Counted from the stretch's first letter, positions 15,301 to 34,300 are shown. The stretch: DNA of 64,000 nt from Callorhinchus milii (GCF_018977255.1 NW_024704742.1:138510001-138574000), one strand, 5' to 3'. Notes: generated by a model from the sequence alone, not told the origin. Made by a program: numbers and translations.

Positions 15301-18300
15301 CTGACACACACACAAACCCATCACCGTGACCAGCCGGGTGTCTGACACACATGGAAACCCATCACCGTGACCAGCCGGGTGTCTGACACACACACAAACC
15401 CATCACCGTGACCAGCCGGGTGTCTGACACACACACAAACCCATCACCGTGACCAGCCGGGTGTCTGACACACACACAAACCCATCACCGTGACCAGCCG
15501 GGTGTCTGACACACACACAAACCCATCACCGTGACCAGCCGGGTGTCTGACACACATGGAAACCCATCATCGTAGCTCAAGTGTCTCTAAACCAAACTGG
15601 AAGTTCCAGTATGTCACCTACGCATGGAAATTTCTCTTTGTCTGGTATTGAATGTACAACTCTGAAAAGAGGAGCGAGCCCCAGCACAGACACGATGGAG
15701 AGAGAGAGAGAGAGAGAGAGCAGGGAATGGGGTTAGAGTAGAGAGAGAGCTCCAGTGGGGGAGCGGAAAGTGAGTACCTGGTGGGATTGCCGGTTGCCTG
15801 TCCTGTTGCTGTTTAAATTTGTCCAGGTTGATGGAGGGCGGGCGGCTGGGCTTTTGGGGTGGAGGTCCGAGGGTCCAGGTCGCGGGGAGAGGTTTCCTCT
15901 TCGGTGTATCCAGGCCCTTCCCCTCCTCACTGTCCTCCATACTCTGACGTTTGGCCAGGAATTGGCCTTTGGGTTTGGGCCGGATGCTGGGGGGGGCTGT
16001 GCTGTGCTCCTCAGCTTTGGGTTTCTGCAGGAAAGTGGTGGGTTTGAGGCCTTGGCCCGAGATCTGCTTCACCGGCCTGAGGGGGAAACGCCCGACAGCC
16101 CCATCCTCATTCGCTGCCTTCTCCACACTGTCCTTGTGCCCAGCCACAGACTCAGCCCCAGGCTTCGGCCCGGGCTTGGGGAAGGTAGACCTGTCCCCCA
16201 GGCTGGGCTTGAGGCCTGAGGGCTTGGGGAAGGCCGGCTTCTCGTAGCTGTTGCCGGGATTGAGGGGTTTGGCGAATGGCGGGGGCTTCGTGAAGCGGCT
16301 CTCGTTCTCCTTCTGCAAATCCCGGGTCTCTGTCACGGCCTTCAGCCCGACCAGGGGCTTGGGGATGACTGGCTTCTCCTCCCCCGCCTGGACGCTGAAC
16401 GCACTGACCAAGGACTTTGTCCCAACGCCCGGCTTCACGAAACTCGGTTTGGCCTCCTTTTGGGGAGTCAGGCCCTCGGTTTGGGTCCTTGCAGTTGTCC
16501 CGGGCTTCGGAAAGGACACCCATGGTGGGTTGGGTTTAGGCCCGGCCGAGCCAGAGTGCTCGCTGAACGATAGGGTGGGCTTCAACCCCGAGGGCTTGGG
16601 GGTAGCTGTGCTCTCGAAGCCGGCTGCCCGACTGGCTACCGAAGTCTTGACAGCTTGGAGGGAGGAATGAGGAATGGGTCTGAGCATCCGCGGGCCTACA
16701 GCAGAAGCCACCTCCTCCCCCGGGGGCTTCGAGCCAAACTTCGCCATCAGGGCCTTGACGTCAGACTTGGCATTCTGCGAGAGAGAGAGAGAGAGAGAGA
16801 GAGAGGAACAGTGACTGAGCGAGTACCAGGCAACAGGGAACAGGGAACGTCGATCAGACTGACGCACGGCCAGCGAACAACAACGAGCCCCCAGGATCGG
16901 TCTCCCCCGCAGCCCCAACCTTCTCCGCTTCCTGTCTGACTGTGACTTCCTGAGCCGTGGTCAGAGCGCTTCAAACACATACGCCAGCGAGCGATGTGTG
17001 CGTGTGCGCGTGTGTGCGCGCAGACACCCAGCAAGTCACCCCCCCCACCCCACCCCCACCGGTGTGAAAGCACACTTCCTGCTCTGCACTTGCTCCGCAA
17101 GAACCCCAGGTCAGGCGGAGAGCCAGGGGGAGGCTTCACTTGGGGCTCAGTCGCTCGCGCTCTCCCCTCCTGAGTCACGAGGTCACAGAATCTGAAGGAG
17201 ACCATTCGGTCCATCGAACCTGCGTCGGCTCTTTGTAACCAATCCCACTCCCCCACTCTTACCCCAACTAGTCCCACTCCCTCACTCTTTCCCCAACTAT
17301 TCCCACTCCCCTGCTCTTACCCCAACTAGTCCCACTCTCCCACTCTTACCCCAACTAGTCCCACTCCCCCACTCTTACCCCAACTAGTCCCACTCCCCCA
17401 CTCTTACCCCAACTAGTCCCACTCCCTCACTCTTACCCCAACTAGTCCCACTCCCCCACTCTTACCCCAACTAGTCCCACTCTCCCGCTCTTACCCCAAC
17501 TAGTCCCACTCCCCCGCTCTTACCCCAACTAGTCCCACTCCCCCGCTCTTACCCCAACTAGTCCCACTCTCCCGCTTTTACCCCAACTAGTCCCACTCCT
17601 CCGCCCTTACCCCAACTAGTCCCACTCTCCCACTCTTTCCCCAACTAGTCCCACTCCCCCACTCTTACCCCAACTAGTCCCACTCCCCCGCTCTTACCCC
17701 AACTAGTCCCACTCCCCCGCTCTTACCCCAACTAGTCCCACTCTCCCGCTCTTACCCCAACTAGTCCCACTCCCCCACTCTTACCCCAACTAGTCCCACT
17801 CCCCCGCTCTTACCCCAACTAGTCCCACTCCCCCGCTCTTACCCCAACTAGTCCCACTCCCCCGCTCTTACCCCAACTAGTCCCACTCCCCCACTCTTTC
17901 CCCAACTAGTCCCACTCCCCCGCTCTTACCCCAACTAGTCCCACTCCCCCGCTCTTACCCCAACTAGTCCCACTCCCCCGCTCTTACCCCAACTAGTCCC
18001 ACTCCCCCACTCTTACCCCAACTAGTCCCACTCCCCCAGCCTTTCAGGCAGTGTATTCCAGACCGTAACAACTCTCTGGGTAAAAAAAAATCTCCTCGTC
18101 TCCCCTCTGGTTCTTTTGGCCATTATCCTGAATCGGTGTCACCTGGTTACCGACCCATTGCCACTGGAAACAGTTTCTCCCTATTTACTCTTTCAAAACC
18201 CCTCATAATTTTGAACCTCTCTATTAAGTCTCCCTTTAAACTTCTCTGCTCTGAGGGGAATAACCTCTCTCGTCTCTCCACATAATTGTAGTCCCTCATC

Positions 18301-20920: not shown

Positions 20921-23900
20921 TGACCACAATATCCTCTCACAGTGCCGGTCGGCTGAGCCGCTAGCGAGCGAACGAGAGAGCGATGGAATGAGCGAGATGC
21001 TCCGAGACGCAGCCCAACCCCAGTGAGGAAGCTATTAAGAGGACCTTGAAACAGGAAGCGTTTGACAGTCTCGGGGGGAAGGAGAGTCGGGGGAGAGAGA
21101 GAGAGAGAGAGAGAGAGAACTCACTTACCGAGACGCGGAAGCTGTCGTTATTCACATTAGATAAATATAAACACAAACAAAGCCTTTACTAAAGCTACCG
21201 AAAGCCAGCGAGGTGCGGAGTAAAACACCGTCAGCCGGCTGGCTTGTCACACAGAGGGACTTTTCCAAACACAACTACCTGCCAAGCCGGTTTCATTAAA
21301 CATCTCCTCCTTCTCTGGATGAGAGGCAACCTCGTTCAGGTGAACACCAGCAACAGGTGACGGTGCTTGAAAAGGAACAAAAATTGCAGGGCTGTAGGGT
21401 AAGGGCGGGGGAGATGGGGTAAGGGAGTTGGGGTAAGGGTGAGGGAGTTGGGGTAAGGGCGGAGGAGTTGGGGTAAAAGGGCGAGGGAGTTGGGGTAAGG
21501 GCGAGGGAGTTGGCCCACAAAATATACAGTCACTACAGTTTACAGTGGATTCTGTGAAGTGTTTTGAGAGGAGGAGTATTATTATAATAACAAAGCACAC
21601 AGTCACTACACCTCACAGTAAATCCCCCGTGAAGCACTTTGAGACGTTCCTCCTGAAGTGAAACCGATGTGAGGATGATGAGGAGTTGTGGTACGTTGTA
21701 TGTAACAATGTCAGACTCACTGCTTCACACCAACCAAACCCATCCCCGGCCCGAGCCCGGCTCAGCCTCCACTACCTGATAAGGCACCGTATCAAATGCA
21801 AGGGCCTTGGGGGGCTGGGGAGACGGGGATGACTGGTTGGACAACCCCACCCTCCCCCACTCACTGCAGTGTCACACAATAAATCCCCCGCTCCCCCCTC
21901 GTGCAGCTCCTCGCCTCACGCGAAGAGCCCAAGTTCAAGCTCACCCGACATCTCTCCCAATGACAACCGATGCAAATCGAGGGAAGAAACACGGAAGCCG
22001 CGGCTTTCCCACTTTCCTGGGGGTTTTGCCCTCCCTCTAACACACGCTCGCCGAGCTCACAGTCCAGGCGCAATTGGCCGCCACGTTTCGCCCACAAAAC
22101 GCACAGTCACTACACTTTGCAGTACATTCTGTGAAGCGCTTGGAGATGTTTCGAAGACGTGATAAGGCGCCATATCAAATGCAAGGATGATGATTATTAT
22201 TATTACCAGTTTATTGCCTGGAAACCCCTCTCTCTCTCTCGGAGAGCGGGGGGGAGAGAGTGTGAGATAGCCATATGTTAACTAACACATCCCACATCGC
22301 AATCTCACCCCCTGCTCGCTGCACTTCCTGCCTGTACTTTCCATCGCCTCGCCTCACCTCACCTCATCCCGCTGCTCGTTTAAACTAAAATAAAAGTCCT
22401 GTAAAATAAAAATTTCCTCTTTCGGGCTGAGTTTGTGTTCATTTTTAGACCTGGAATGATCCCAATATCACACCTCCTCAAAGCCCGGCCTCAACGGCTG
22501 ACATTTCCTGGCCTCTCCTCTGTATTTAGCACTTAAGGAATCACTTTGGGTACTATTATTAGTTTTACATCGACTCTAACCTCAAGATGTTGGCTCCACA
22601 TTCCCCCCCCACCCCACCCCACCTCACACCATTGGTGGTCAGGCCTTCAGCCTCTCTGCCCCTCACCCTCTGGAACTCCATCTCACATTCCCTTGGCCTC
22701 GCTCCCTCTCTTGCCTCCTTCAAGGCCCGTCTCGAAACCTCCTCATCGACCGTGCCTTCAGTCACCCGCCCACCCCTACCCTCCCCGCGCCCCTCTCTCT
22801 CTCCCTCCTGATCCCAGCCTTGTAGCTCAGTGGTTAGAGCTCTCGCCTCGCAAGCGAGAGGACCTGGGTTTGATTCCCGGGCAGGGGGCGAAGATTTGGG
22901 CAAGTTTCCTTACCCCCCCCCACGCCTCTGTTTACCAGCAGTCAGTAGGAACCCGGTTGTTAGTCGATCGGTGGATCAGGGCAATCAATTAATTTTACAG
23001 TGTATCCTGTGAAGGACTTTGAGACGTCACGAAGATGTGATAAGGCTCTACATCAAATGTAAGGATTATTGTTATTATATTATAATCCCCAGTCTCAGGG
23101 TCCAAATCCCTGAATGTCCAGCACTTTGGGGTGTCCTCCTAACACGGAAGGCACTGTGTAAATGTCATTTGTTGTCGTTGGTGAAGCCCATTCGGTCCAT
23201 TTGATCTCATCCATCCAGCGTCCCTGCCCACAACCCTCCCCCCCAGCATCCTAACCCCAACCCTAGCCAACCCAAATGGCTCCCAACATCCTGACCTCAC
23301 TCCAGGGGGGAATTCTCCCTCCGGCTACAGAAATACTTCCTGGTGTCTGGTCTGAAATTGCCTCTCAACCCGTACCACAGTGGTTAGAGCACTTGCCTCA
23401 CAAGCGAGAGACTTGGGTTGATTCCCAGCCAAGAGAAACGTTGGGCAGGTGGACCTTAAAGATCCTGGGGCTGAGACACCAGCATTTAAGTGCTCTGAGA
23501 CGCTACTGTGCGTGGCGGGCGCTATATTAATGCAAGCTGTTTTTTCTCTCACTCAACAGGAGCCCTGTAGTTCAGTGGTTAGAGCGCTCACCTCCCAAGT
23601 GAGAGGACCAGGGTTCACTCCTGGGCAGGGAGAAACCTTAGGCAAGTTTCCTTACTCCAGACGCCTCTGTTATCAGCAGTAAGTAGGGACCTGGTTGTTA
23701 GTCGATTGATGGATCACTTTTCTGGGGTAATAATCCCTTCAAAAATAATAATTTGGTCACTCAATTCAGGGCTGTTTGTGGGACGCTGCTGTGTGCAATT
23801 GGCTGCCACGTTTCGTCCACAAAATACCCAGTCAATTCACTTTACAGTGTATCCTGTGAAGTGCTTTTTTGAGACGTCTCGAAGACGTGATAAGGGGTCC

Positions 23901-25520
23901 TGTAGCTCAGTGGTTAGAGCACTCGCTTTGCAAGTGAGAGACCTGAGTTCAATTCCAGGCAGAGGGCGAAACCTTGGGCAAGTTTCCTTACTCCACACAG
24001 AGCCTAATAATAATCCCTCCAAAACCAAAAACAATAATAAATTGGTCATTTTCAATCTACGACTGTTTGTGGGACATTGCTGTGCGCAATTGGCTGCCGC
24101 GTTCGCCCACAAATATACAGTCAATTCACTTTACAGTGTGTTCTGTGAAGCGCTTTGGGACGTCCTCCCGACGTGAAAAGCGCTATATCAAATGCGAGGA
24201 TTATTATTATTAATTGGAGTTGAGCTACAGATCAGCCATAATCTTACAGAATGCCGGAACAGGCTTGAAGGGCTGAATGGCCGCCTATTCCTATATTTTC
24301 ATGTCCCAGCCCGACTACCCCTCAGCCAGGCTCCCCGGTTCTGAGTTCACCTTATTATCTTACCACACAAGCAACCCGTGACTTTAAACCCGACACCAAA
24401 GCCTCAACCAGAGTAATCTGATCAAATGGCTTCCAAAAACTCCGTCCGAAATCACACTCGTGGCTTCAATAACTTCCCCAAAGACAGGTCAGTAACTGCA
24501 CAAACACCAACTCATCCTCTTTGCAGCATCTCAGCTCTCTTTATGGCATGTGTCACATGGACAGTGAGTAAAAATAAACTGTCTTCCTCTGTGCCGTTTG
24601 CGGGGGACTTTGCTGTGTGCAAACTGGCTGCTACATTCGCCTGGAGGGCATTGCAGAGTCCTGTAGCTCAGTGGTTAGAGCCCTCGCTTCACAAGCGAGA
24701 GGACCCGGGTTCAATTCCTGGGCAGGACACAACCTTAGGGCAAGTTTCCTTACCCCACACGCCTCTGTTTACCAGCAGTCAGTAGGAACCCGATTGTTAG
24801 TTGATTGGCGGATCACTTTTCCGGGGGTAATAATCCCTTCAAGAAATGAATACTGCAAATAATCTGTTCGCTCAATCTACGGCTGTTTGTAGGACGCTGC
24901 TGTGCGCAATTGGCTGCCGCGTTTCGCCCACAGAATATGCGGTCACTACACTTTACAGAGTACTTTAAATAACTGCTGAGACAGAAATGACAGGAAATTG
25001 AGAAACATAGGAGGCCATTCAGCCCCTCAAGCCTGTTCCACCGTTCCTCCCCGTCAATGACCCCGAGAGAGAGAGAGAGAGAGAGAGGGATAGAAAGCGA
25101 AAGAGGGAAGGAAGGATGGAGGGAAGGAGACAGAAATAAGGAGGGAAAGAAAGATATAGAGGGAGACCAAGAGACAGAGCGAGTTAGAGGAGCGAGGAAC
25201 AGGCCTCTCAGTGTTGAGTTACTGACCCACACGAGGATTAATTTGAATAAAAACTAAATGCAAATGTCGGGCTTGGCCTGCTATCTCTTTCCCTTTCTAT
25301 CTTTCTCTCTTTCCCCCTCTCCTTCTCTTCCCCTCGCTCTCCCTCTTTCACTTTTCAGTGTATCCTACGAAGCTCTTTGAGACGTCTCGAAGACGTGATA
25401 AGGCGCTGCAACAAATACACCAATTACTACGATCATTATTATTATTATTATTATTGCTATTGTCGGTCGCTGGAGATTAACAGAGATTAAAAGACAATTC
25501 ACTGGAGACTGACTCACCAT
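269..25520 (-). CDS. FYB1: FYN-binding protein 1 (ADAP/SLAP-130), spliced CDS span, 5' part; continues beyond position 1
   Basis: Six exons with matching phases (0,1,2,1,0,2). Sequence includes [51 protein letters not shown] and YEDL. Synteny with DAB2 matches human 5p13. Confidence 0.93.
625..1170 (+). mobile_element. CR1-clade LINE 3' fragment
   Basis: [31 protein letters not shown] is a typical CR1 ORF2 C-terminus; 3'UTR ends ggctgaatggcct..ctgttcctatgttctatgtt. Confidence 0.88.
1228..1259 (-). CDS. FYB1: FYB1 exon 5, small exon ([11 protein letters not shown])
   Basis: 32 nt, phase 1-0, which is required to bridge exons 4 and 6; attacag|AT ... GAG|gtgaga. Confidence 0.72.
1947..2035 (-). 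CDS. FYB1: FYB1 exon 4 ([29 protein letters not shown])
   Basis: 89 nt, phase 2-1; cccacag|G ... GAAG|gtatgc; acidic YDDV motif. Confidence 0.87.
2692..2788 (-). CDS. FYB1: FYB1 exon 3 ([33 protein letters not shown])
   Basis: 97 nt, phase 1-2; ttgcag|CC ... AC|gtgagt; contains PSLPPR as in human exon 3. Confidence 0.87.
2846..5310 (+). mobile_element. L2-clade LINE, 5'-truncated and frameshifted, with internal 39-bp array
   Basis: RT motifs across frames: [39 protein letters not shown]. Ends in cagcgccttgggacgtcctcc..gaaaggcgct and a (TTG)n tail. Confidence 0.93.
4020..4860 (+). repeat. 39-bp minisatellite inside L2, about 20 units
   Basis: Unit ccaggctccccgaccccatcacccccatcctcaccccca; it generates the spurious [13 protein letters not shown]s. 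Confidence 0.95.
6385..7035 (+). mobile_element. L2 3' fragment
   Basis: RLDYANSLL / LHW-type region plus the same 3' tail. Similar fragments at ~9675-10025, 10830-11172, 12480-12990, 13295-13660, 31490-31835, 54130-54745 and 61370-61850 (+), and ~2290-2590, 32090-32390, 45600-46055, 48490-49275 and 52285-52775 (-). Confidence 0.85.
10190..10275. promoter_or_regulatory. Candidate haematopoietic enhancer in FYB1 intron 2
   Basis: Overlapping TGTTTAC (Forkhead) and ACTTCCTC (PU.1-type) sites, then CACTTCCTG (ETS), in non-repeat sequence. Motif evidence only. Confidence 0.35.
15120..15572. repeat. ~40-bp (CA)n-containing minisatellite, array 1
   Basis: Unit accagccgggtgtctga(ca)n aacccatcaccgtg. 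Confidence 0.95.
15778..16774 (-). CDS. FYB1: FYB1 exon 2, large Pro/Lys-rich exon
   Basis: 997 nt, phase 0-1; (ct)n gcag|AAT ... CCAG|gtactc. Repeated FPKP/LKP motifs and the conserved SKAP-binding proline segment; lies within ORF 15614..16918. Confidence 0.94.
17185..18312 (-). mobile_element. CR1 3' fragment carrying a 29-bp minisatellite
   Basis: Reverse-strand [25 protein letters not shown]; the array sits in the 3'UTR. Confidence 0.85.
17241..18037. repeat. 29-bp minisatellite, about 27 units
   Basis: Unit agtcccactcccccgctcttaccccaact. Confidence 0.96.
21129..21245 (-). other. Candidate alternative non-coding first exon of FYB1 (5' limit unknown)
   Basis: Strong donor TCG|gtaagtg in a CpG-containing unique segment (20770-21360), with an ETS site at 21051. 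Exon 2 has its own ATG (MAKF). Confidence 0.35.
25518..25520 (-). CDS. FYB1: FYB1 first exon: terminal ATG (5'UTR extends to roughly 25700, TSS unknown)
   Basis: GAGAGATG|gtgagtc donor in unique sequence. Phase 0 joins exon 2 to give [14 protein letters not shown], like the human long isoform MDGKADVKSLMAKY. Confidence 0.75.
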
Positions 25521-26154
25521 CTCTCCCTGAGGCAGGACAAACCCACACTCCCTCCGTCGGTCTGCCCGCCCGCACTCTCCCTCCCTCCCTCCCTCCCTCG
25601 CTCACTCGTCTGTCTTCCACGGCACTGGCTGCTCAAACTTCCCCTCCGCTGGCCACCTAACCACACGCTTCCCACCCTCAGCCGTCATCACTGTGACAGC
25701 TGTACCCACAGCCCTGTGTCAGCTTCTTATCACTCACACTCATCACTGTGATGGGCGGGTGGGGGGGGGGGAGGGAGAGACAGGGAAAGAGGGAGAGAGT
25801 GACAGGGAGGGGGAGAGAGGAAGGAGAGAGAGAGGGTGGGGTGGGGGGGGGGGGGGTGGGGGAGGGTGCCTGGGGTGTGGGGGAGCGACAGAGGGAAGTG
25901 AGAGATGCAAACGCAGTCACAAGATGGGTTCACATAAAGAAAACCTTTCAGGCCGTCTGATCTCCTCCCCCCAGAACCCCCGCCCGACCGTCCCCCCATC
26001 ACAGCATTGAGCTGCTTTATAAACCAGTCCCGGAGACCTGGCCTCAACCCCCCCACCCCCCCACCTCCCCACTTCCTGCTAATCCTGTTCCACGGGTTAA
26101 TTACCCTCTGGGCAAATAAACACTTCCTGGTGTCTGCCCTGAAGAAACATTTTG

Positions 26155-26870
26155 AATCATAGAATTTTACAGCACAGAAGGACGTCGTTCGGCCCATCGT
26201 GTCTTTGCCGGCTCTTTGGAAGAGCTGCCAAGTAGTCCCACTCCCCCGCTCTTACCCCAACTAGTCCCACTCCCTCACTCTTACCCCAACTAGTCCCCAC
26301 TCCCCCGCTCTTACCCCAACTAGTCCCACTCCCTCACTCTTACCCCAACTAGTCCCCACTCCCCCGCTCTTACCCCAACTAGTCCCACTCCCCCGCTCTT
26401 ACCCCAACTAGTCCCACTCCCTCACTCTTACCCCAACTACTCCCAGTCCCCCACTTTTACCCCAACTACTCCCACTCCCCCACTTTTACCCCAACTACTC
26501 CCACTCCCCCGCTCTTACCCCAATTAGTCCCACTCCCCCGCTCTTACCCCAACTACTCCCCCCGCTCTTACCCCATAGCCCTGCACATTTTTCTTTTTAA
26601 GTCCCTATCCAATTCCCCTTTGAAAGCTGTTATTGAATCTGCTTTCACCCGCCTCTCGGGCAGTGAACTCCAGACCGTAACAACTCTCTGTAAAACAAAG
26701 TCTCCTCCCCTCCCCTCTGGTTCTTTTGCCGATTATCTTAAATCTGTGTCCTCTGGTCACCGCCAGTGAAACAATTTCTCCCTATTTATTCTATTTATCA
26801 AAACCCTTCATAATTTTGAACACCTGTATTGAATCTCTCCTTAACCTTCTCTGCTCTAAGGAGAACAATC
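26155..26870 (-). mobile_element. CR1 3' fragment carrying the same 29-bp minisatellite
   Basis: Collinear with 17185-18312 (ccagaccgtaacaactctctg, ccctctggttcttttg, ttcataattttgaac). Confidence 0.85.
26231..26575. repeat. 29-bp minisatellite, about 12 units
   Basis: Same unit as 17241-18037. Confidence 0.95.
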
Positions 26871-27589
26871 TTGCCTAAGGTTTCGCCCCCCGCCCGGGAA
26901 TCAAACCCGGGTCCTCTCGCTTGCGAGGCGAGTGCTCTAACCCCTGAGCCACAGGACTCCACTTTACCTGAGCACTAATGTTAAATCATTACACCCATAA
27001 TAAGTATCTAATTGTATTTGTGTTTAAACGATCTCCTTAAGTATTGTGAAATACCAGCGCAGAACGGTTTCATTTTAGTTGTTGAGAAATTAACTTTTAA
27101 CTTGGAAAATGGAACAGAAAGTTCTCATGCGCTGCCACCGTTAATAGGAGACTAAAAATATCCACTTAATCAACTTCAGAACCTTTAAGGAGGCAATCGG
27201 AGTATCAGCTCGCATCACCATGTACTATATTGTTGGCTGACCAATAATATATAATATATAATAACCCTTGCAGTTGATACAGCAACTTATCGCGTCTTCG
27301 AGACGTCTCAAAGCGCTTCACGGAATATACTGTAAAGTGTAGTGACTGTATGTTTTGTGGGCGACATGTGGCAGCCAATTGCGCACAGCAGCGTCCCCAC
27401 AAACGGCCGTGGATTGAGTGACAATTTTTTAAAATCAGATGCTATATGGAAGGCACAGGAGGACAAGGCGTTAATATATACACGGAGCATGAGGTCCCAG
27501 TGCAAACCCCTGAGCCCCTGAATCCACAGCTATGTCCTTGTCCTCGATACCCAGTGACCACGGTTTGCGGAGAAATCTCTCCAAACCCA

Positions 27590-30230
27590 CCCGATCCCCC
27601 GGTACAACAACAATCTCCGCCGCCAAAAACCCAAACCCGGCTGCTCGAGCGCAGATGGCGGAAAACTGTCCTGACGGTTCACCAACTGAGGCTCGAGCAT
27701 CTCCACAGCGACCGCCGTTCTTTGACACGCGCAAAAACGGCTTCTACTCCAACATCATCGCGGAGGCTAAACACAACCCCAACGTCCTTTTTTCCACCAC
27801 CCACTACCTCATCCGTGCCCCCCCTCAGGCCCCTCAATCTTCACATCCAATGCCAAGTGCGAGGAGGTCATGGACTTCTTTTCATCCAAAATACACATCT
27901 ACCAGACAGCCTCATCCTCCTGCCTCTTGTCACACACCACCACCCCCTCTCCGACCGCCTCACCCTCCCCATCATCTGCTCATACCAACACCCCCATTCT
28001 ACATTCTTTCCTCCCCATCTCTCCCTCCTCCCTCTCACCCACCATCACCTCCATGAAACCCACCACCTGCTGCCTCGACCCCCTCCCCACCAACTTGCTG
28101 GTCACACAGCTCCCCCTCCTCTGCCCACTACTGGCTGACGTCATCAACCAGTCCCTCTCCTCCGGATCAGTCCCTGCCCCTCCTCAAAATTGCTGTCATC
28201 ACCCCCCTCCTCAAAAAACCCTCCCTCGATCCCTCAAACCCCAGCCATTACTGCCCCATTTCTAACCTGCCCTTCCTCACCAAAGTCCTAGAACGCGTTG
28301 TTGCCAATCAACTCCGCGCACACCTCTCCTCCCACTCCCTCTTCGAACCCCTCCAGTCCGGTTTCCGCCCACAGTACAGAGACTGCGCTTGTGAAAGTCA
28401 CAAACGACATCCTCTCTATCTGTGACCAGGGCTCCCTCTGCCTCCTTGTCCTCCTGGACCTCTCCGCGGCATTCGACACAGTCGATCAACCCATCCTCCT
28501 CCCCCGCCTTTCCTCCGTCATCCACCTCAGTGGGACCGCACTCGCCTGGTTCGAGTCCTACCTCACAAACCACCAGCAGTACATCTGCACCAACGGCTTC
28601 TCCTCTCCCGCTCTCACCCGGATACCTGTTGGGGTACCCCAAGGATCCATCCTTGGCCCCCTCCTCTTTCTGATCTACAAACTCCCTCTTGGGGATGTCA
28701 TCCGCAGACATGGGGTACACTTCCACATGTACGCGGATGACACCCAACTCTATTTGTCCACCTCTCTTTGCGCCCCCCAGTCCCCTGATGTTCTCCTGTC
28801 AGATCTCAGGGGTTGGATGAGCGCAAACTTCCTTCAGCTGAACGTTGACAAGATGGAAGCCATACTCTTTGGCTCTCGTCAACATCTAAAGTCTCAGGGT
28901 TCTCACCTCCTCCACCGACCCGACCTCCCCCTAAAACTCTCCGAACCCGTACACAACCATGGCGTCAACTCCACGACCCCCGATGTCCTGACAGCTGTCT
29001 GTCTGACATCGATCCTGGACGAGAGACAACTTTCTTCAGCTCAACGTGCGCAAAACTGAGGCCCTCCTGATTGGCTCACGTCAGCGCCTCCGCACCTCAG
29101 GCGCTGACAGCATCAGCATCCAAGGCCGCACTCTCCACCTCTCAAAGCCATCAGGAACCTCGGGGTTCTGTCAGACCCTGAGCCGTCCTTTCTCCCTCAT
29201 ATCCGCACCACAACCGGCACCACCTTCCATCACCTCCGGAACATCGCCAGACTACGGCACTACCTCACCCCTCACGCGGCTGAAACTCTGGTCCACACCT
29301 TTATCACCTCAAGGCTGGACTATGGGAACTCTCTCCTCGCGGCCTTCCCGGCCCTCCCTCCACACTGCAGGTCATTCAGAACTCTGCAGCTCGTGTACTG
29401 TCCCGCATCAGTGACCACATCACTCCCACCCACACCCTCGCCCTCACTCTCACCCTCACTCGCCTCCACTGGCTCCCCATCCCCCAGAGGATCGAATTCA
29501 AGATCCTCATCCTCACCTACAAGGCCATTCATGGCCTCGCTCCCTCCTACCTCTCTGACCTACTATCCCCCTACTTACCTGCCCGTACCCTCCGTTCCTC
29601 TGGCTCCGGTCTTCTCCACGTCCCCCGCCCCAACCGCCCTACTATAGGTGGCCGGGCCTTCAGCCTCTCAGTCCCGAGGCTCTGGAACTCCATCCCCCAG
29701 TGCCTTCGCCGCTTCCTCCCTTTCCTCCTTCAAGGCCGGTCTCAAGACCTTTCTCTTTGACCGTGCCTTCAGCTCCGCTCTCGACTCTCTCTACCCCCTT
29801 CCTCGCCCCCTCCCTTCCCTCCCCTCACTGACCATTTTCCCCCCCCTCCTCCTGCCTTCCCTCCCTCACCCTGACCATTTCCCCCTCCTCGCCCCTCCCT
29901 CCCTCCCCTCACCCTGACCATTTCCTTCTCCTCGCTCCCTCCCCTCCCCCTGACCATTTCCCCCCAATGCTCGAGTCCTGACCCAACTCTCCAGCGCCTT
30001 GGGACGTCCTCCCAACGTGAAAGGCACTCTATAAATGGAATCTTGTTGTTGTTGTTGTGTTGTCAGGTTCGCCCCCCAATTATCCTTCCTCCCCCACACC
30101 ATCTTCTACCACCTCCGACGCATCACCCCTCTCGGCCAATACCTCACTCCAAAAGCCGCTGAAACCCCTGGTCCATGCCTTTGTCACCTCTCGGCTGGAC
30201 TACTCTAACGCCCTCCTCGCCGGCCTCCCA
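27590..30230 (+). mobile_element. Composite degenerate L2 LINE
   Basis: [25 protein letters not shown] and YADD in ORF 28298..29059. The NFLQLN region occurs twice (~28825 and ~29025). (TTG)n tail at ~30043-30062, followed by a further fragment. Confidence 0.93.
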
Positions 30231-30808
30231 AAATCAGATGCTATATGGAAGGCACAGGAGGACAAGGCGTTAATATATACACGGAGCATGAGGTCCCAGT
30301 GCAAACCCCTGAGCCCCTGAATCCACAGCTATGTCCTTGTCCTCGATACCCAGTGACCACGGTTTGCGGAGAAATCTCTCCAAACCACCCGATCCCCCGG
30401 TACAACAACAATCTCCGCCGCCAAAAACCCAAACCCGGCTGCTCGAGCGCAGATGGCGGAAAACTGGCCTGACAGTTCCGCACAGCAGCGTCCCACAAAC
30501 AGCCGTGGATTGAGTGACCGCATTTTTTTTGAAGGGATTATTACCCCCGGAAAAGTGATCCGCCAATCGACCAACAACCGGGTTCCTACTCACTGCTGGT
30601 AAACAGTTGTGGGAGTGAGGAAACTTGGCCAACGTTTCACCCCCTGCCCGGGAATCGAACCCAGGTCCTCTCACTTGCGAGGCGAGGGCTCTAACCCCTG
30701 AGCTACAGGGGTCCACAAGATGGTTCTCCCATCTCTCACTTGTCTCTGTCTCGAGGTAAGTGAGAGATGGGGGGACGAGCATGAGGTATTGAAAGGTGAG
30801 AGAGTTAC

Positions 30809-31375
30809 CGTTGGTGACGGAGGAGACCTGAGCGATCTCAAAGTCATCGTTGTCGGCTGTGTCCTGGGCCAGACCTACTTTGCTGAAATACTGGGAGAAG
30901 GCGGCTGAGGTCCCGGGAACGCTGGCCGGCTCGGATCGCCGGGCTGGCACTGCGGGCGGCTTGGCAATCTGGAAATCTTTAAACAGGTCCTTGACGCTCT
31001 TGGAGTCTCGTTCGCCCAGGGGGTCCAGGCCACTGAAGGCACTGGGCTTGGGGGGCTCCAGCACGGAGGGTCTTGGTGGAGGCTGTGGGGGTCCCGCGCT
31101 TTGGGAGGAGGTCAGGCCCACCAGGGGCACGGCGACTGGTGGGCTGAAGGGGTTGGGGGTTAATGGGGCAGCCTGGGGGGCGGCTGGATGACCCCAGACC
31201 CCGGGCTGGGAGAGGGGAACCTGCCCCCAGGCGGAGGACATAAAGGTGCCGGGCTGCCCCCAGCCCACGGGAGCTTGGCTGAAGACGTTGGGGTGTATGA
31301 ACCCTGCTGGTCTGGGAGCCACGGCAGTCGGAGCGGGTGGGCCCCACGGTCCGGGGGGAGAGGGTCCGACCAGAC
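30809..31375 (-). CDS. DAB2: DAB2 exon 12, proline-rich and myosin-VI-binding region
   Basis: 567 nt, phase 1-1; ccctgtag|GT ... AACG|gtaact. Encodes [36 protein letters not shown] and [17 protein letters not shown]. Confidence 0.96.
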
Positions 31376-34300
31376 CTACAGGGAGAAGAACTGAGTGAGT
31401 GTCTGTCTTAACACCAAGGTCCATCCTGTTCGCCTTCCACCATCCCACCAGTCACTTGATATGTCGTGTCCCAACTATATACTATATCCCCATATCAACC
31501 TGTCCGCTCCTTCCGCTCAGTGGGCTCTGGCCAGCTCCACGGCCCCCGCCCGGCCCATCCCACCATCAGCGGTCGGGCCTTCAGCCTCTCTGCCCCCACC
31601 CTCTGGAACTCCATCCCACAGTGCCTTCGCCTCAGCCCCTCTCTTGCCTCCTTCAAGATCCGTCTCAAGACCCTCTTCTTTGACTGCGCCTTCGATCACC
31701 CTCTAATCCCCCACCCTCCCTGGCCTCCACCGCTCCCGATCCCAACCCCCACTTCGGGCCCCAAATCACTGACTGTCCAATGCTTTGGGACGTTCTCCTG
31801 ACGTGAAGAGCGCTGTGTAAATGTCATGTGTTGTTACGGTCCTACCTGGACTGGCCAGTGTTGGTGCTGTGGTGGGCACGGTGAGGAGGCCGAGGGGGTA
31901 GCTGGGAGATGGTTGACTAGCTGGAGCGCCAGCCTCAAACATGCCAGAGCCAAAGGGGTCACCAGAGGGCAGGTCACCAGGAGACTGAGAGAGAGAGGGC
32001 AGAGGTCAGGCAATTCCTATCAAACATAGCACAGAAACCACACAACTATAGAGCGTGAAGGCGTTTAGACTCCAACCGGACTCCCACCCCGGGATCTGAA
32101 GGTGGGGAGGGAGGGGGCGAGGCGGAGGAATTGAGGGAGAGAGTTCCAGAGTTTCGGGGTGTAGGGGCTGAAGGCACGGCCACCGATGGTGAAGCGGAGG
32201 GGGCGAGGGACAAACAGGAGGCCGGAGCCAGCCGAGCAGAGGCAGCGGATGGGGGAGTGGGCGGGTGAGCAGGTCGGGGAGGTAGGGAGGGGCGAGGCCA
32301 TGAAGGGATTTGAAAACGAGTGAGAGGAGCTTGAAATCGATCCATTCGGTGATTGGGAGCCAGTGGAGCCTGGCGAAGACTGGGGTGATGACCGGTTAAC
32401 ACAGAGGAACGTTTACGTCCACCTGAGCAGGTACAGATGGGACCTCAGTAAAATGTCTCCTCCGAAGAACGGCAGCTGAAAACACAGCACTCCACCAGCA
32501 CTGTGCTGGAGGGTCAGCTTGGACTGAGCTTACAGTCCGACAGGGAGTTGGCTCAAACTCACAACCTCCTGACTCAGAGGCGAGTGGCATTGGATGGGGA
32601 GAGAAGAGCAGTTGGAGACACTGCTGATGACAGCCCAGCCCATCGGCAGGACCCGGTAGGACACACCAGTCACTTGGGGCAGGGAAACCTCCCACTCAGC
32701 TCCTGTTACCCCGCATCCAAAGCCCTAACTAATGGGGAGGGTGGTCCTCGCTGGACAAGCAGCGGGAAAGCTGGTCAGACAGTGATCTCAATGGCCGAGC
32801 TGTGTGGGTTTAACTGGTTAGACTCCAGCAGTTACCCCAACACACACTCTGGGCTCCCCCCAGGCCTTGGCTCTCACCAACCTGCGCCTAATACTCTCTG
32901 GAATTAGATAAACAGGATGTGTCCCTCCAGAGAGAGAGGAGAGAGAGAGAGAGAGCGCATTCCATTCCAACCATCTATCTCTGGGATTCTCATATGTAGG
33001 TGGGAGACATGGAATTCTCAGTTGGGTTTGGAGACTCTTAAGCAACGGTGATGGGTTTCCACGTGTGTCAGACACCCGGCTGGGGGAAAAAAAAGCAATT
33101 GAGAGATTCACACAATTAGTAACATTATATAAAGTTGGTTCCTGGTGTCTGTGCAGTGAGGAGATGCTGTTAGACCTGCGTTAAAGCCACACCACTCGCT
33201 GCAACAACCTTGAATTTGCATCCTTCACAAGCAATAGGTTAAAAGCAAATTCCGGGGATTAGATGATAGAATGGTAAGCCTTGCATTTGATACAGCGCCT
33301 CATCACATCTTCGAGACGTCTCAAAGCGCTTCACAGAATATACTGTAAAGGTGTGGTGACTGTGGGGCGAAACTCGGCAGCCCATTGGGTTCAGCAGCGT
33401 CCCACAAACAAGTCGTGGACTGAGTGACCAATCCACTAACAACTAAAAACTAACGTGTTCCTACTTACTGCTGGTAAACAGAGGTGTGTGGAGTAAGGAA
33501 ACTTGCCCAACATTTCGCCATTCCCGGGAATCAAACCCAGGTCTCTCGCTTGCGAGGCGAGGCCTCTAACCACTGAGCTACAGGACTCCATGCTCCAGTT
33601 AACGGTTAGTCACATCTGGAGCCCGAGTGTTGGATCTCATCACAATGTCAGAGCTGGTTAGTAGCTGAGCAGGGTTAGGAACATTCAACGCAGTGTCGCT
33701 GGTGGGACAAGGATCCGGGTTTAGTGCAGAGCGTAGAGCTGTAGCAAGTCTGTGGTTAGTGACGAGCTTCGTCTGTTAGAGTCACCTTGACGTTCCTTCT
33801 GCCTCGTGCCGTCTGGGGCGGTGGGGAGAGCACGACAGAGTCTCGGGGGGGCTTGTGGACGAGGTCCGATTGGCGTTGGCCTGGCTCCAGGTTCCTTACC
33901 GGTGGTGACGGCACAGCCTGGCGCTTGGCAAAGGGGTTGGTGTAGGTGCTGCCCGCATGGCTGCTCGCTCGGTCACTTCCGGAGCCTTGGTTGAGGGATC
34001 CATTCAGGGCTGATGCGGAGGATTCCAACTGGTCAAGTCTCCAGAGCCCCTCCAAGCCCCCCGCTCTCCCGTTCACCAGCTCAGAGTCACAGCCAGTAAG
34101 CTCCCTGCTCAGTCCGTTGACGTTGATGTTGGGACCCCCAGGGAGAGAGCCTTCGCTGGGGTTGGGGGGCTGAGGGCTGAACACAGTGAAGGGATCGTGG
34201 CCGAAAGGGTTGGGGTCTGGGGTGGGGAAGAAAGCCAGCGAGGAGGGGAAGCCGCTGGCACACGGAGCCTCCGCAGAGACGCTGGCTGGGGCAGGAGTCA

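Follow-up and report, generated by a model that had tools for sequence, protein, structure and literature searches.

Absence of the DAB2 end and complement C9 from the Callorhinchus milii assembly: a probable assembly error between DAB2 and FYB1

Between DAB2 and FYB1, where the largest scaffold of the Callorhinchus milii assembly (G000) nears its end, the last DAB2 exons and the whole complement C9 gene appear to be missing. This raises the question of whether the sequence was lost by the species or by the assembly. We analyzed a window of 64,000 nucleotides (C1:138510001-138574000 of 139202109), in which both DAB2 and FYB1 lie on the minus strand, and followed up a reading made from the sequence alone (the sequence-only reading), which had offered a repeat-mediated deletion and a misjoin as alternatives and thought the misjoin at least as likely. 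The misjoin side of that reading is backed by our results. A deletion at the level of the species is refuted, since C. milii has both a full-length C9 and a DAB2 with a normal C-terminus on record. C9 and the DAB2 end are most likely absent from the assembly and not from the species.

Layout of the DAB2-FYB1 interval

The DAB2 exon of the window matches Callorhinchus milii proteins at 100%, which identifies the animal as the elephant shark, and 187 consecutive residues of the last exon present in the assembly are identical to P0001 (UniRef V9KDX0, C. milii DAB2, 548 aa; Table 1). This exon ends G/GTAACT, which is the normal phase-1 GT donor at 30809 that the sequence-only reading had described for exon 12. 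The ATG exon of FYB1 also lies where that reading had placed it, 5.3 kb beyond the donor. It ends ATG/GTGAGT at 25517-25519, in frame with the acceptor of the large FYB1 exon at 16774. A further exon on this strand, 3 kb beyond the window edge, encodes an hSH3-N domain that matches PDB entry 2gtj, a structure of the FYN-binding protein (E 1.8e-18), which confirms that the gene left of the interval is FYB1/ADAP. No public contig cover was reported at 25400-25623, a span that overlaps the FYB1 first exon, in a comparison that skipped repeats, and an Atlas search with FYB1 exon 2 returned no match at 0.9 or above.

The 5.3-kb interval contains no N. Repeat comparison shows it to be the mosaic of SINE, LINE and minisatellite sequence that had been described, plus three short unique pieces. 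Read towards the DAB2 donor, the order is a minisatellite-bearing repeat, a SINE piece, 278 unique bases, a second SINE piece, copy 1 of a 250-bp duplication, three abutting LINE pieces, copy 2 of the duplication and a final SINE piece. The first of these repeats is presumably a CR1 element (a label taken from the sequence-only reading), and a reverse transcriptase frame at 28292-29059 within the LINE pieces is probably of the L2 type. None of the alignments of the LINE fragments to the other DNA compared crosses either of their two joins. The two 250-bp copies are 98.8% identical with 3 differences, and at the last two of these copy 2 agrees with 4/4 other family members. The first 147 bp of the duplicate match only these two places among the 40 candidates scored of 968 in G000.

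The interval had been said to hold no C9 or DAB2-end exon, and our searches bear this out. In a tblastn comparison of the interval with C9 proteins and DAB2 C-termini, six of each, scores reached at most 25.8 bits. Exact peptides shared with the window as a whole were at most six residues long for C9 and the DAB2 end alike, which is chance level, as this length was reached by 406/500 shuffles for C9 and 208/500 for the DAB2 end. The search for decayed C9 exon remnants at the syntenic site likewise gave chance-level matches only, both in the interval and in the whole window. Neither tblastn nor the exact-peptide comparison found diverged DAB2 end exons or C9 remnants within the interval.

The sequence-only reading had looked to C9 and DAB2 end exons on another contig as the mark of an artefact. 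This expectation failed in that the exons are on no contig of G000; they are absent from the assembly altogether. Searching G000 with the last 60 residues of the C. milii DAB2 protein gave 3 matches, the best at 59% (4/4 candidates scored), which comprise two degenerate intronless copies (59% and 49%, one of them frameshifted) and a weak 39% match. A DNA search with one degenerate copy found no intact parent (4/4 candidates scored). The species' own C9 (P0252, UniRef V9KPT1) gave 19 matches with no exon above 55% (70/70 candidates scored), and by place and query range these are C8, C6 or LDL-receptor-type exons. In a control, the species' own C8A gave 11 exon matches of 65-98% on C5, including a 29-residue exon, with 75 of 139 candidates scored. 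A MACPF family search of G000 found only the two C8 genes and three further genes, which we take from their sequence to be MPEG1-like. Relocation of the C9 and DAB2 exons to another contig is rejected, only degenerate or paralogous matches having been found in G000; for these assembly-wide negatives, stretches reading as N could hide a match on another contig.

Table 1. Features around the DAB2-FYB1 interval (positions counted from the first letter of the window)
Feature	Position	Strand	Remarks
Two FYB1 intron 1 pieces used as the false C-terminus of P0002	20964..21365	-	approximate bounds
FYB1 first exon, ends ATG then GT donor	25517..25720	-	upstream bound approximate; identity from hSH3 exon match
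Repeat fragment holding 29-bp minisatellite (26228-26560)	26150..26871	.	related copy at 17194-18266
AT-rich unique piece of 278 bp, flanked by SINE fragments	26964..27241	.	X1 record 1 (26933-27314), X2 records 10, 11
250-bp duplication, copy 1	27431..27680	+	98.8% identical to copy 2
Three abutting LINE (L2-type) fragments	27578..30229	+	joins near 28965 and 30060
250-bp duplication, copy 2 (147 bp unique + about 100 bp LINE start)	30230..30478	+	
Partial SINE beside DAB2 donor	30473..30716	-	exon adjacency from 30680 on: X1 record 6, X2 record 16
Last DAB2 exon in assembly	30809..31373	-	P0001 residues about 301-488 + first base of codon 489
Preceding DAB2 exon	31844..31985	-	spliced to next exon in probable-RNA contig (X7 record 31)

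DAB2 and C9 products of the species

Residues 1-488 of P0001 are encoded exactly in the window and residues 489-548 are not. Past residue 488 the protein continues with the normal PKPAPR...DPFGNPFA end, as in sharks, rays and bony vertebrates, and an older NCBI C. milii DAB2 model (P0357), the source of which may be either genomic DNA or transcript patching, has the same C-terminus. Contigs from 4 of 24 public runs were also compared with the window. Two runs are DNA-sized (X1, X2) and two, from two studies, are probable RNA (X5, X7), a status that is an automatic guess and is not on record; the X7 contig is spliced. In both of the probable-RNA runs (2/2), contigs leave the stretch exactly at 30809 (X5 record 24, X7 record 31) and run on for 276 and 167 bases, respectively, that are found nowhere on 25400-32100. 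The X7 contig is spliced between exons 31844..31985 and 30809..31373. Since the missing DAB2 coding part is 179 bases plus the stop, both overhang lengths are compatible with it, and their position and length suggest that the overhangs are the DAB2 end. Independent data (X5, X7, P0001 and P0357) run beyond the break into sequence that is off the stretch.

P0252 is a full-length C. milii C9 of 584 aa, with the TSP1-LDLa-MACPF order and the length (about 550-620 aa) of a C9 protein. Its MACPF match scores 107 bits, and the matches of its other two domains are near or under the Pfam cut-off, LDLa above it and TSP1 just below. The five best PDB matches are all C9, at 385-409 bits versus 253 for C6. 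In a quick tree of 27 proteins, P0252 joins the C9 clade (support 100), apart from C6, C7, C8A and C8B. Within that tree, which gives no firm branching order at the base of the cartilaginous-fish clade, it is placed among the cartilaginous-fish C9 proteins (98), outside the shark clade (99) and most rays. Identity between P0252 and each C9 protein of a set of 12 from sharks and rays is only 42-49%, against 61-69% between the Hemiscyllium C9 and those of six other sharks. This low identity and the place outside the shark clade rule out P0252 as a shark contaminant, and its position is the one expected for a chimaera. Both UniRef records (V9KDX0 and V9KPT1) probably derive from transcripts, because C. 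milii RNA-seq transcripts were deposited (PMC3964593) and the sequence is lacking in G000.

These records bear on the reading that the chimaera lineage lost C9 and carries a truncated DAB2, the database proteins being contaminants. Both pieces are indeed absent from G000, and genuine C9 loss has been described for galliform birds (bioRxiv 10.1101/2022.04.21.489004). However, the DAB2 record is identical to the window for its first 488 residues and then runs on, the C9 record is too distant from those of the 12 sharks and rays to be a shark contaminant, and probable-RNA contigs of two studies run past the donor. Based on the DAB2 and C9 records, the tree and these contigs, we consider lineage-level loss refuted and assign it next to no probability. 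Our literature search found no paper on C9 in C. milii. The main text of the C9-loss preprint contains none of the words 'elephant shark', 'Callorhinchus', 'cartilaginous' or 'chimaera', and its supplements may list C. milii. The supplement file of PMC3964593 has no complement entry, and its supplementary notes may discuss C9; the accessible part of PMC6795676 does not address C9 in C. milii.

Origin of the join

The DAB2 end and C9 are absent from G000 and present among the products of the species. As to the cause, a seamless misjoin or collapse in the repeat-dense scaffold end very probably removed both; misjoining itself and the site of the join are what we infer. In the animal, the last DAB2 exons would come after exon 12, and C9 would stand between them and the FYB1 promoter. 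An assembler or gap filler would have linked the DAB2 and FYB1 sides via look-alike repeats, presumably of the L2/SINE type, leaving no N, and the intervening segment would have been dropped and placed nowhere else. This segment is probably tens of kb long, since the paralogue C8A alone spans 8.2 kb in G000. The likeliest scars would be the two 250-bp copies together with the 29-bp minisatellite.

Other gene parts are missing within about 140 kb, a pattern indicative of a general assembly problem. The FYB1 hSH3-N exon is followed after 1.1 kb by a 25-N gap, and the PF14603 model, used to seek the FYB1 hSH3-C exon, finds 3 places in G000, none on C1. C6, located 60-70 kb beyond the window, could be traced only as far as about residue 240-260 (of 935 in all), two of its exons are duplicated 5 kb apart, and no C7 locus was found in G000 with a shark C7 query. 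Four gaps of 25-30 N occur in the 364 kb examined. The absences of C6, C7 and FYB1 parts, for which the queries were proteins of other species or a Pfam model, may back the reading of an assembly problem as supporting context only. For the published chromosome-scale C. milii reference, a single-copy orthologue completeness of 93.1% is reported (PMC12952989).

The interval does not look like an unpolished patch, and this counts against an artefact. Its LINE pieces carry 0 and 2.5 private single-base indels per kb versus 0-4.2 in 11 control copies, an absence of the excess that would mark poor polishing. The X1 and X2 contigs confirm the 278-bp piece together with the SINE sequence on either side of it (26933-27315), and also the exon together with the neighbouring SINE (from 30680); the 278-bp piece is therefore genuine DNA in other animals, with depth 0 in X5 and X7. 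No listed contig bridges 27315-30680, which speaks neither for nor against the join, and the listed X1 and X2 contigs, dominated by repeat-derived ones, show no point at which the true sequence departs. A joint from 27318 to 30473 (X1, X2 and X5) was set aside as a junction; its short side is only 25 bases and lies inside a SINE.

Alternatively, the sequenced animal could have been heterozygous for a private, repeat-mediated loss of the DAB2 end and C9, with the deleted haplotype being the one assembled. The 250-bp duplicate would then be a templated insertion at the repair junction, and a cartilaginous fish would carry a natural C9-null allele. In keeping with this, the sequence is seamless, N-free and of normal quality, and the SINE fragments at 27242-27430 and 30473-30716 share orientation and have overlapping repeat coordinates. 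Template switching leaves locally copied pieces as scars, and the 250-bp copy, with a unique part found only here, would fit that type. Set against a private deletion are the three other missing gene parts within about 140 kb, the rarity per individual of two-gene null deletions, and the lack in G000 of an alternate-haplotype C9 contig, though haplotype-type duplicates do exist elsewhere in this assembly (L037 and L038, 99.6% over 3 kb). The 250-bp duplicate itself is ambiguous: it could be a scar left by the assembly, or a templated insertion where DNA was really deleted. It is because of the clean indel counts, the unbridged interval and this ambiguous duplicate that our confidence in a misjoin or collapse is high without being complete, and that we rate a private deletion as unlikely.

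It is also conceivable that C9 moved away from DAB2-FYB1 into a region that was never assembled, and that the DAB2 end was lost by local collapse. C9 is on no contig, which leaves its position free, and the P0252 cluster holds a UniRef/MetaClust record only, with no NCBI genome-based model, whereas C8A has models of two versions. Nevertheless, a single hole accounts for both absences, and such a move appears very improbable to us.

Comparison with known cases and consequences for annotation

In galliform birds, a true loss of C9 between DAB2 and FYB1 is described, with LINE insertions in the interval, decayed C9 exon remnants, long reads, optical maps and linked reads that span the locus, and RNA that supports the loss (available text of bioRxiv 10.1101/2022.04.21.489004). 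The C. milii case resembles it in the DAB2-FYB1 locus and in the LINE insertions within the interval. In contrast to the galliforms as described there, no C9 remnant is present, DAB2 is also cut, the species has an intact C9 (P0252), and the locus is known from short contigs only. The case fits an assembly drop-out because there are no exon remnants, a neighbouring gene is cut and an intact C9 is on record. Incomplete long-read assemblies give false gene loss in GC- and repeat-rich regions. As in such artefacts, the gene is lacking in the assembly while a full-length product exists in the species, the site is repeat-dense and near a scaffold end, neighbouring genes are also incomplete, and an annotation error has followed downstream. 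Unlike in typical artefacts of this kind, the join here is without an N gap and looks like real contiguous sequence. The risk of false loss is stated for the C9 locus in the same preprint.

With high probability, the missing DAB2 end and C9 are no biological feature, and the value of this case lies in an annotation correction and a caution for surveys of complement evolution, that is, in a warning and not in biology. C. milii serves as a standard outgroup in work on how immunity evolved in jawed vertebrates. If G000 were the only source for a survey, C9 would be counted as lost by mistake, and C6 could also be recorded as truncated and C7 as missing. Should the deletion prove to be private and real, the natural C9-null allele would be of modest interest.

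The annotation error concerns the NCBI DAB2 model P0002 (XP_042188009.1), the last 52 residues of which map at window positions 21363 and 21008. The C-terminus of P0002 is false because it is encoded inside FYB1 intron 1, beyond the FYB1 ATG exon. Intron sequence stands where the conserved C-terminus belongs, and the model needs correcting.

DAB2 terminal sequence

In one NCBI DAB2 model (XP_042188009.1), the last 52 residues are encoded by two pieces of FYB1 intron 1 (window 20964-21365). This C-terminus is an annotation error, caused by the absence of the DAB2 end exons between the last DAB2 exon present and FYB1. Elsewhere in the assembly, two degenerate copies of the DAB2 3' end were located (see table), each containing the last 45 codons and some downstream sequence. 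They share 72% identity with each other, and one of the two carries a frameshift. From their sequence, both look like processed copies, since each reads uninterrupted through the site of the last intron suggested by shark isoforms. We saw neither a poly-A tract nor a target-site duplication at either copy, and the sequence 5' of both resembles a hAT-type transposon end.

Coordinates of features in the C. milii assembly
Feature	Location	Remark
MPEG1-like genes (3)	L001, L003, L004 (contigs C27, C51, C92)	single-exon
DAB2 3'-end copy	L006:1446-1651 (C1:123.16 Mb)	degenerate, intronless
DAB2 3'-end copy	L007:1478-1691 (C2:16.17 Mb)	degenerate, intronless
FYB1 hSH3-N exon	L051:6919-7080	
25-N gap	L051:5812	1.1 kb past hSH3-N exon

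Complement-related and FYB loci

C6 (C1:138636389-138646721) could be traced only to approximately residue 240-260; its LDLa exon and the next exon occur twice, 5 kb apart, with a 54-bp minisatellite after them. A search of the assembly for C7 turned up no locus. The MPEG1-like genes, a name we assign presumptively from their sequence, differ at their ends: that on C27 has a transmembrane-like tail, which is missing from both genes on the small contigs.

A search of the assembly did not recover the hSH3-C exon of FYB1. Another hSH3 exon (L040, C5:2704902) adjoins C8A/C8B (C5:2.66-2.68 Mb) and probably belongs to FYB2. FYB1-C9-DAB2 has a known paralogous block, which this arrangement fits.

A probable haplotype copy and a base difference

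Two 3-kb stretches (C33:662844-665884 and C3:38130025-38133065) are 99.6% identical throughout, and probably represent an uncollapsed haplotype copy. Within the last DAB2 exon present (30809-31373, minus strand), position 30978 is T in the window versus C in all four public runs compared. The DAB2 protein is the same either way, and the T reflects a mistake in the assembly or an allele private to the sequenced animal.
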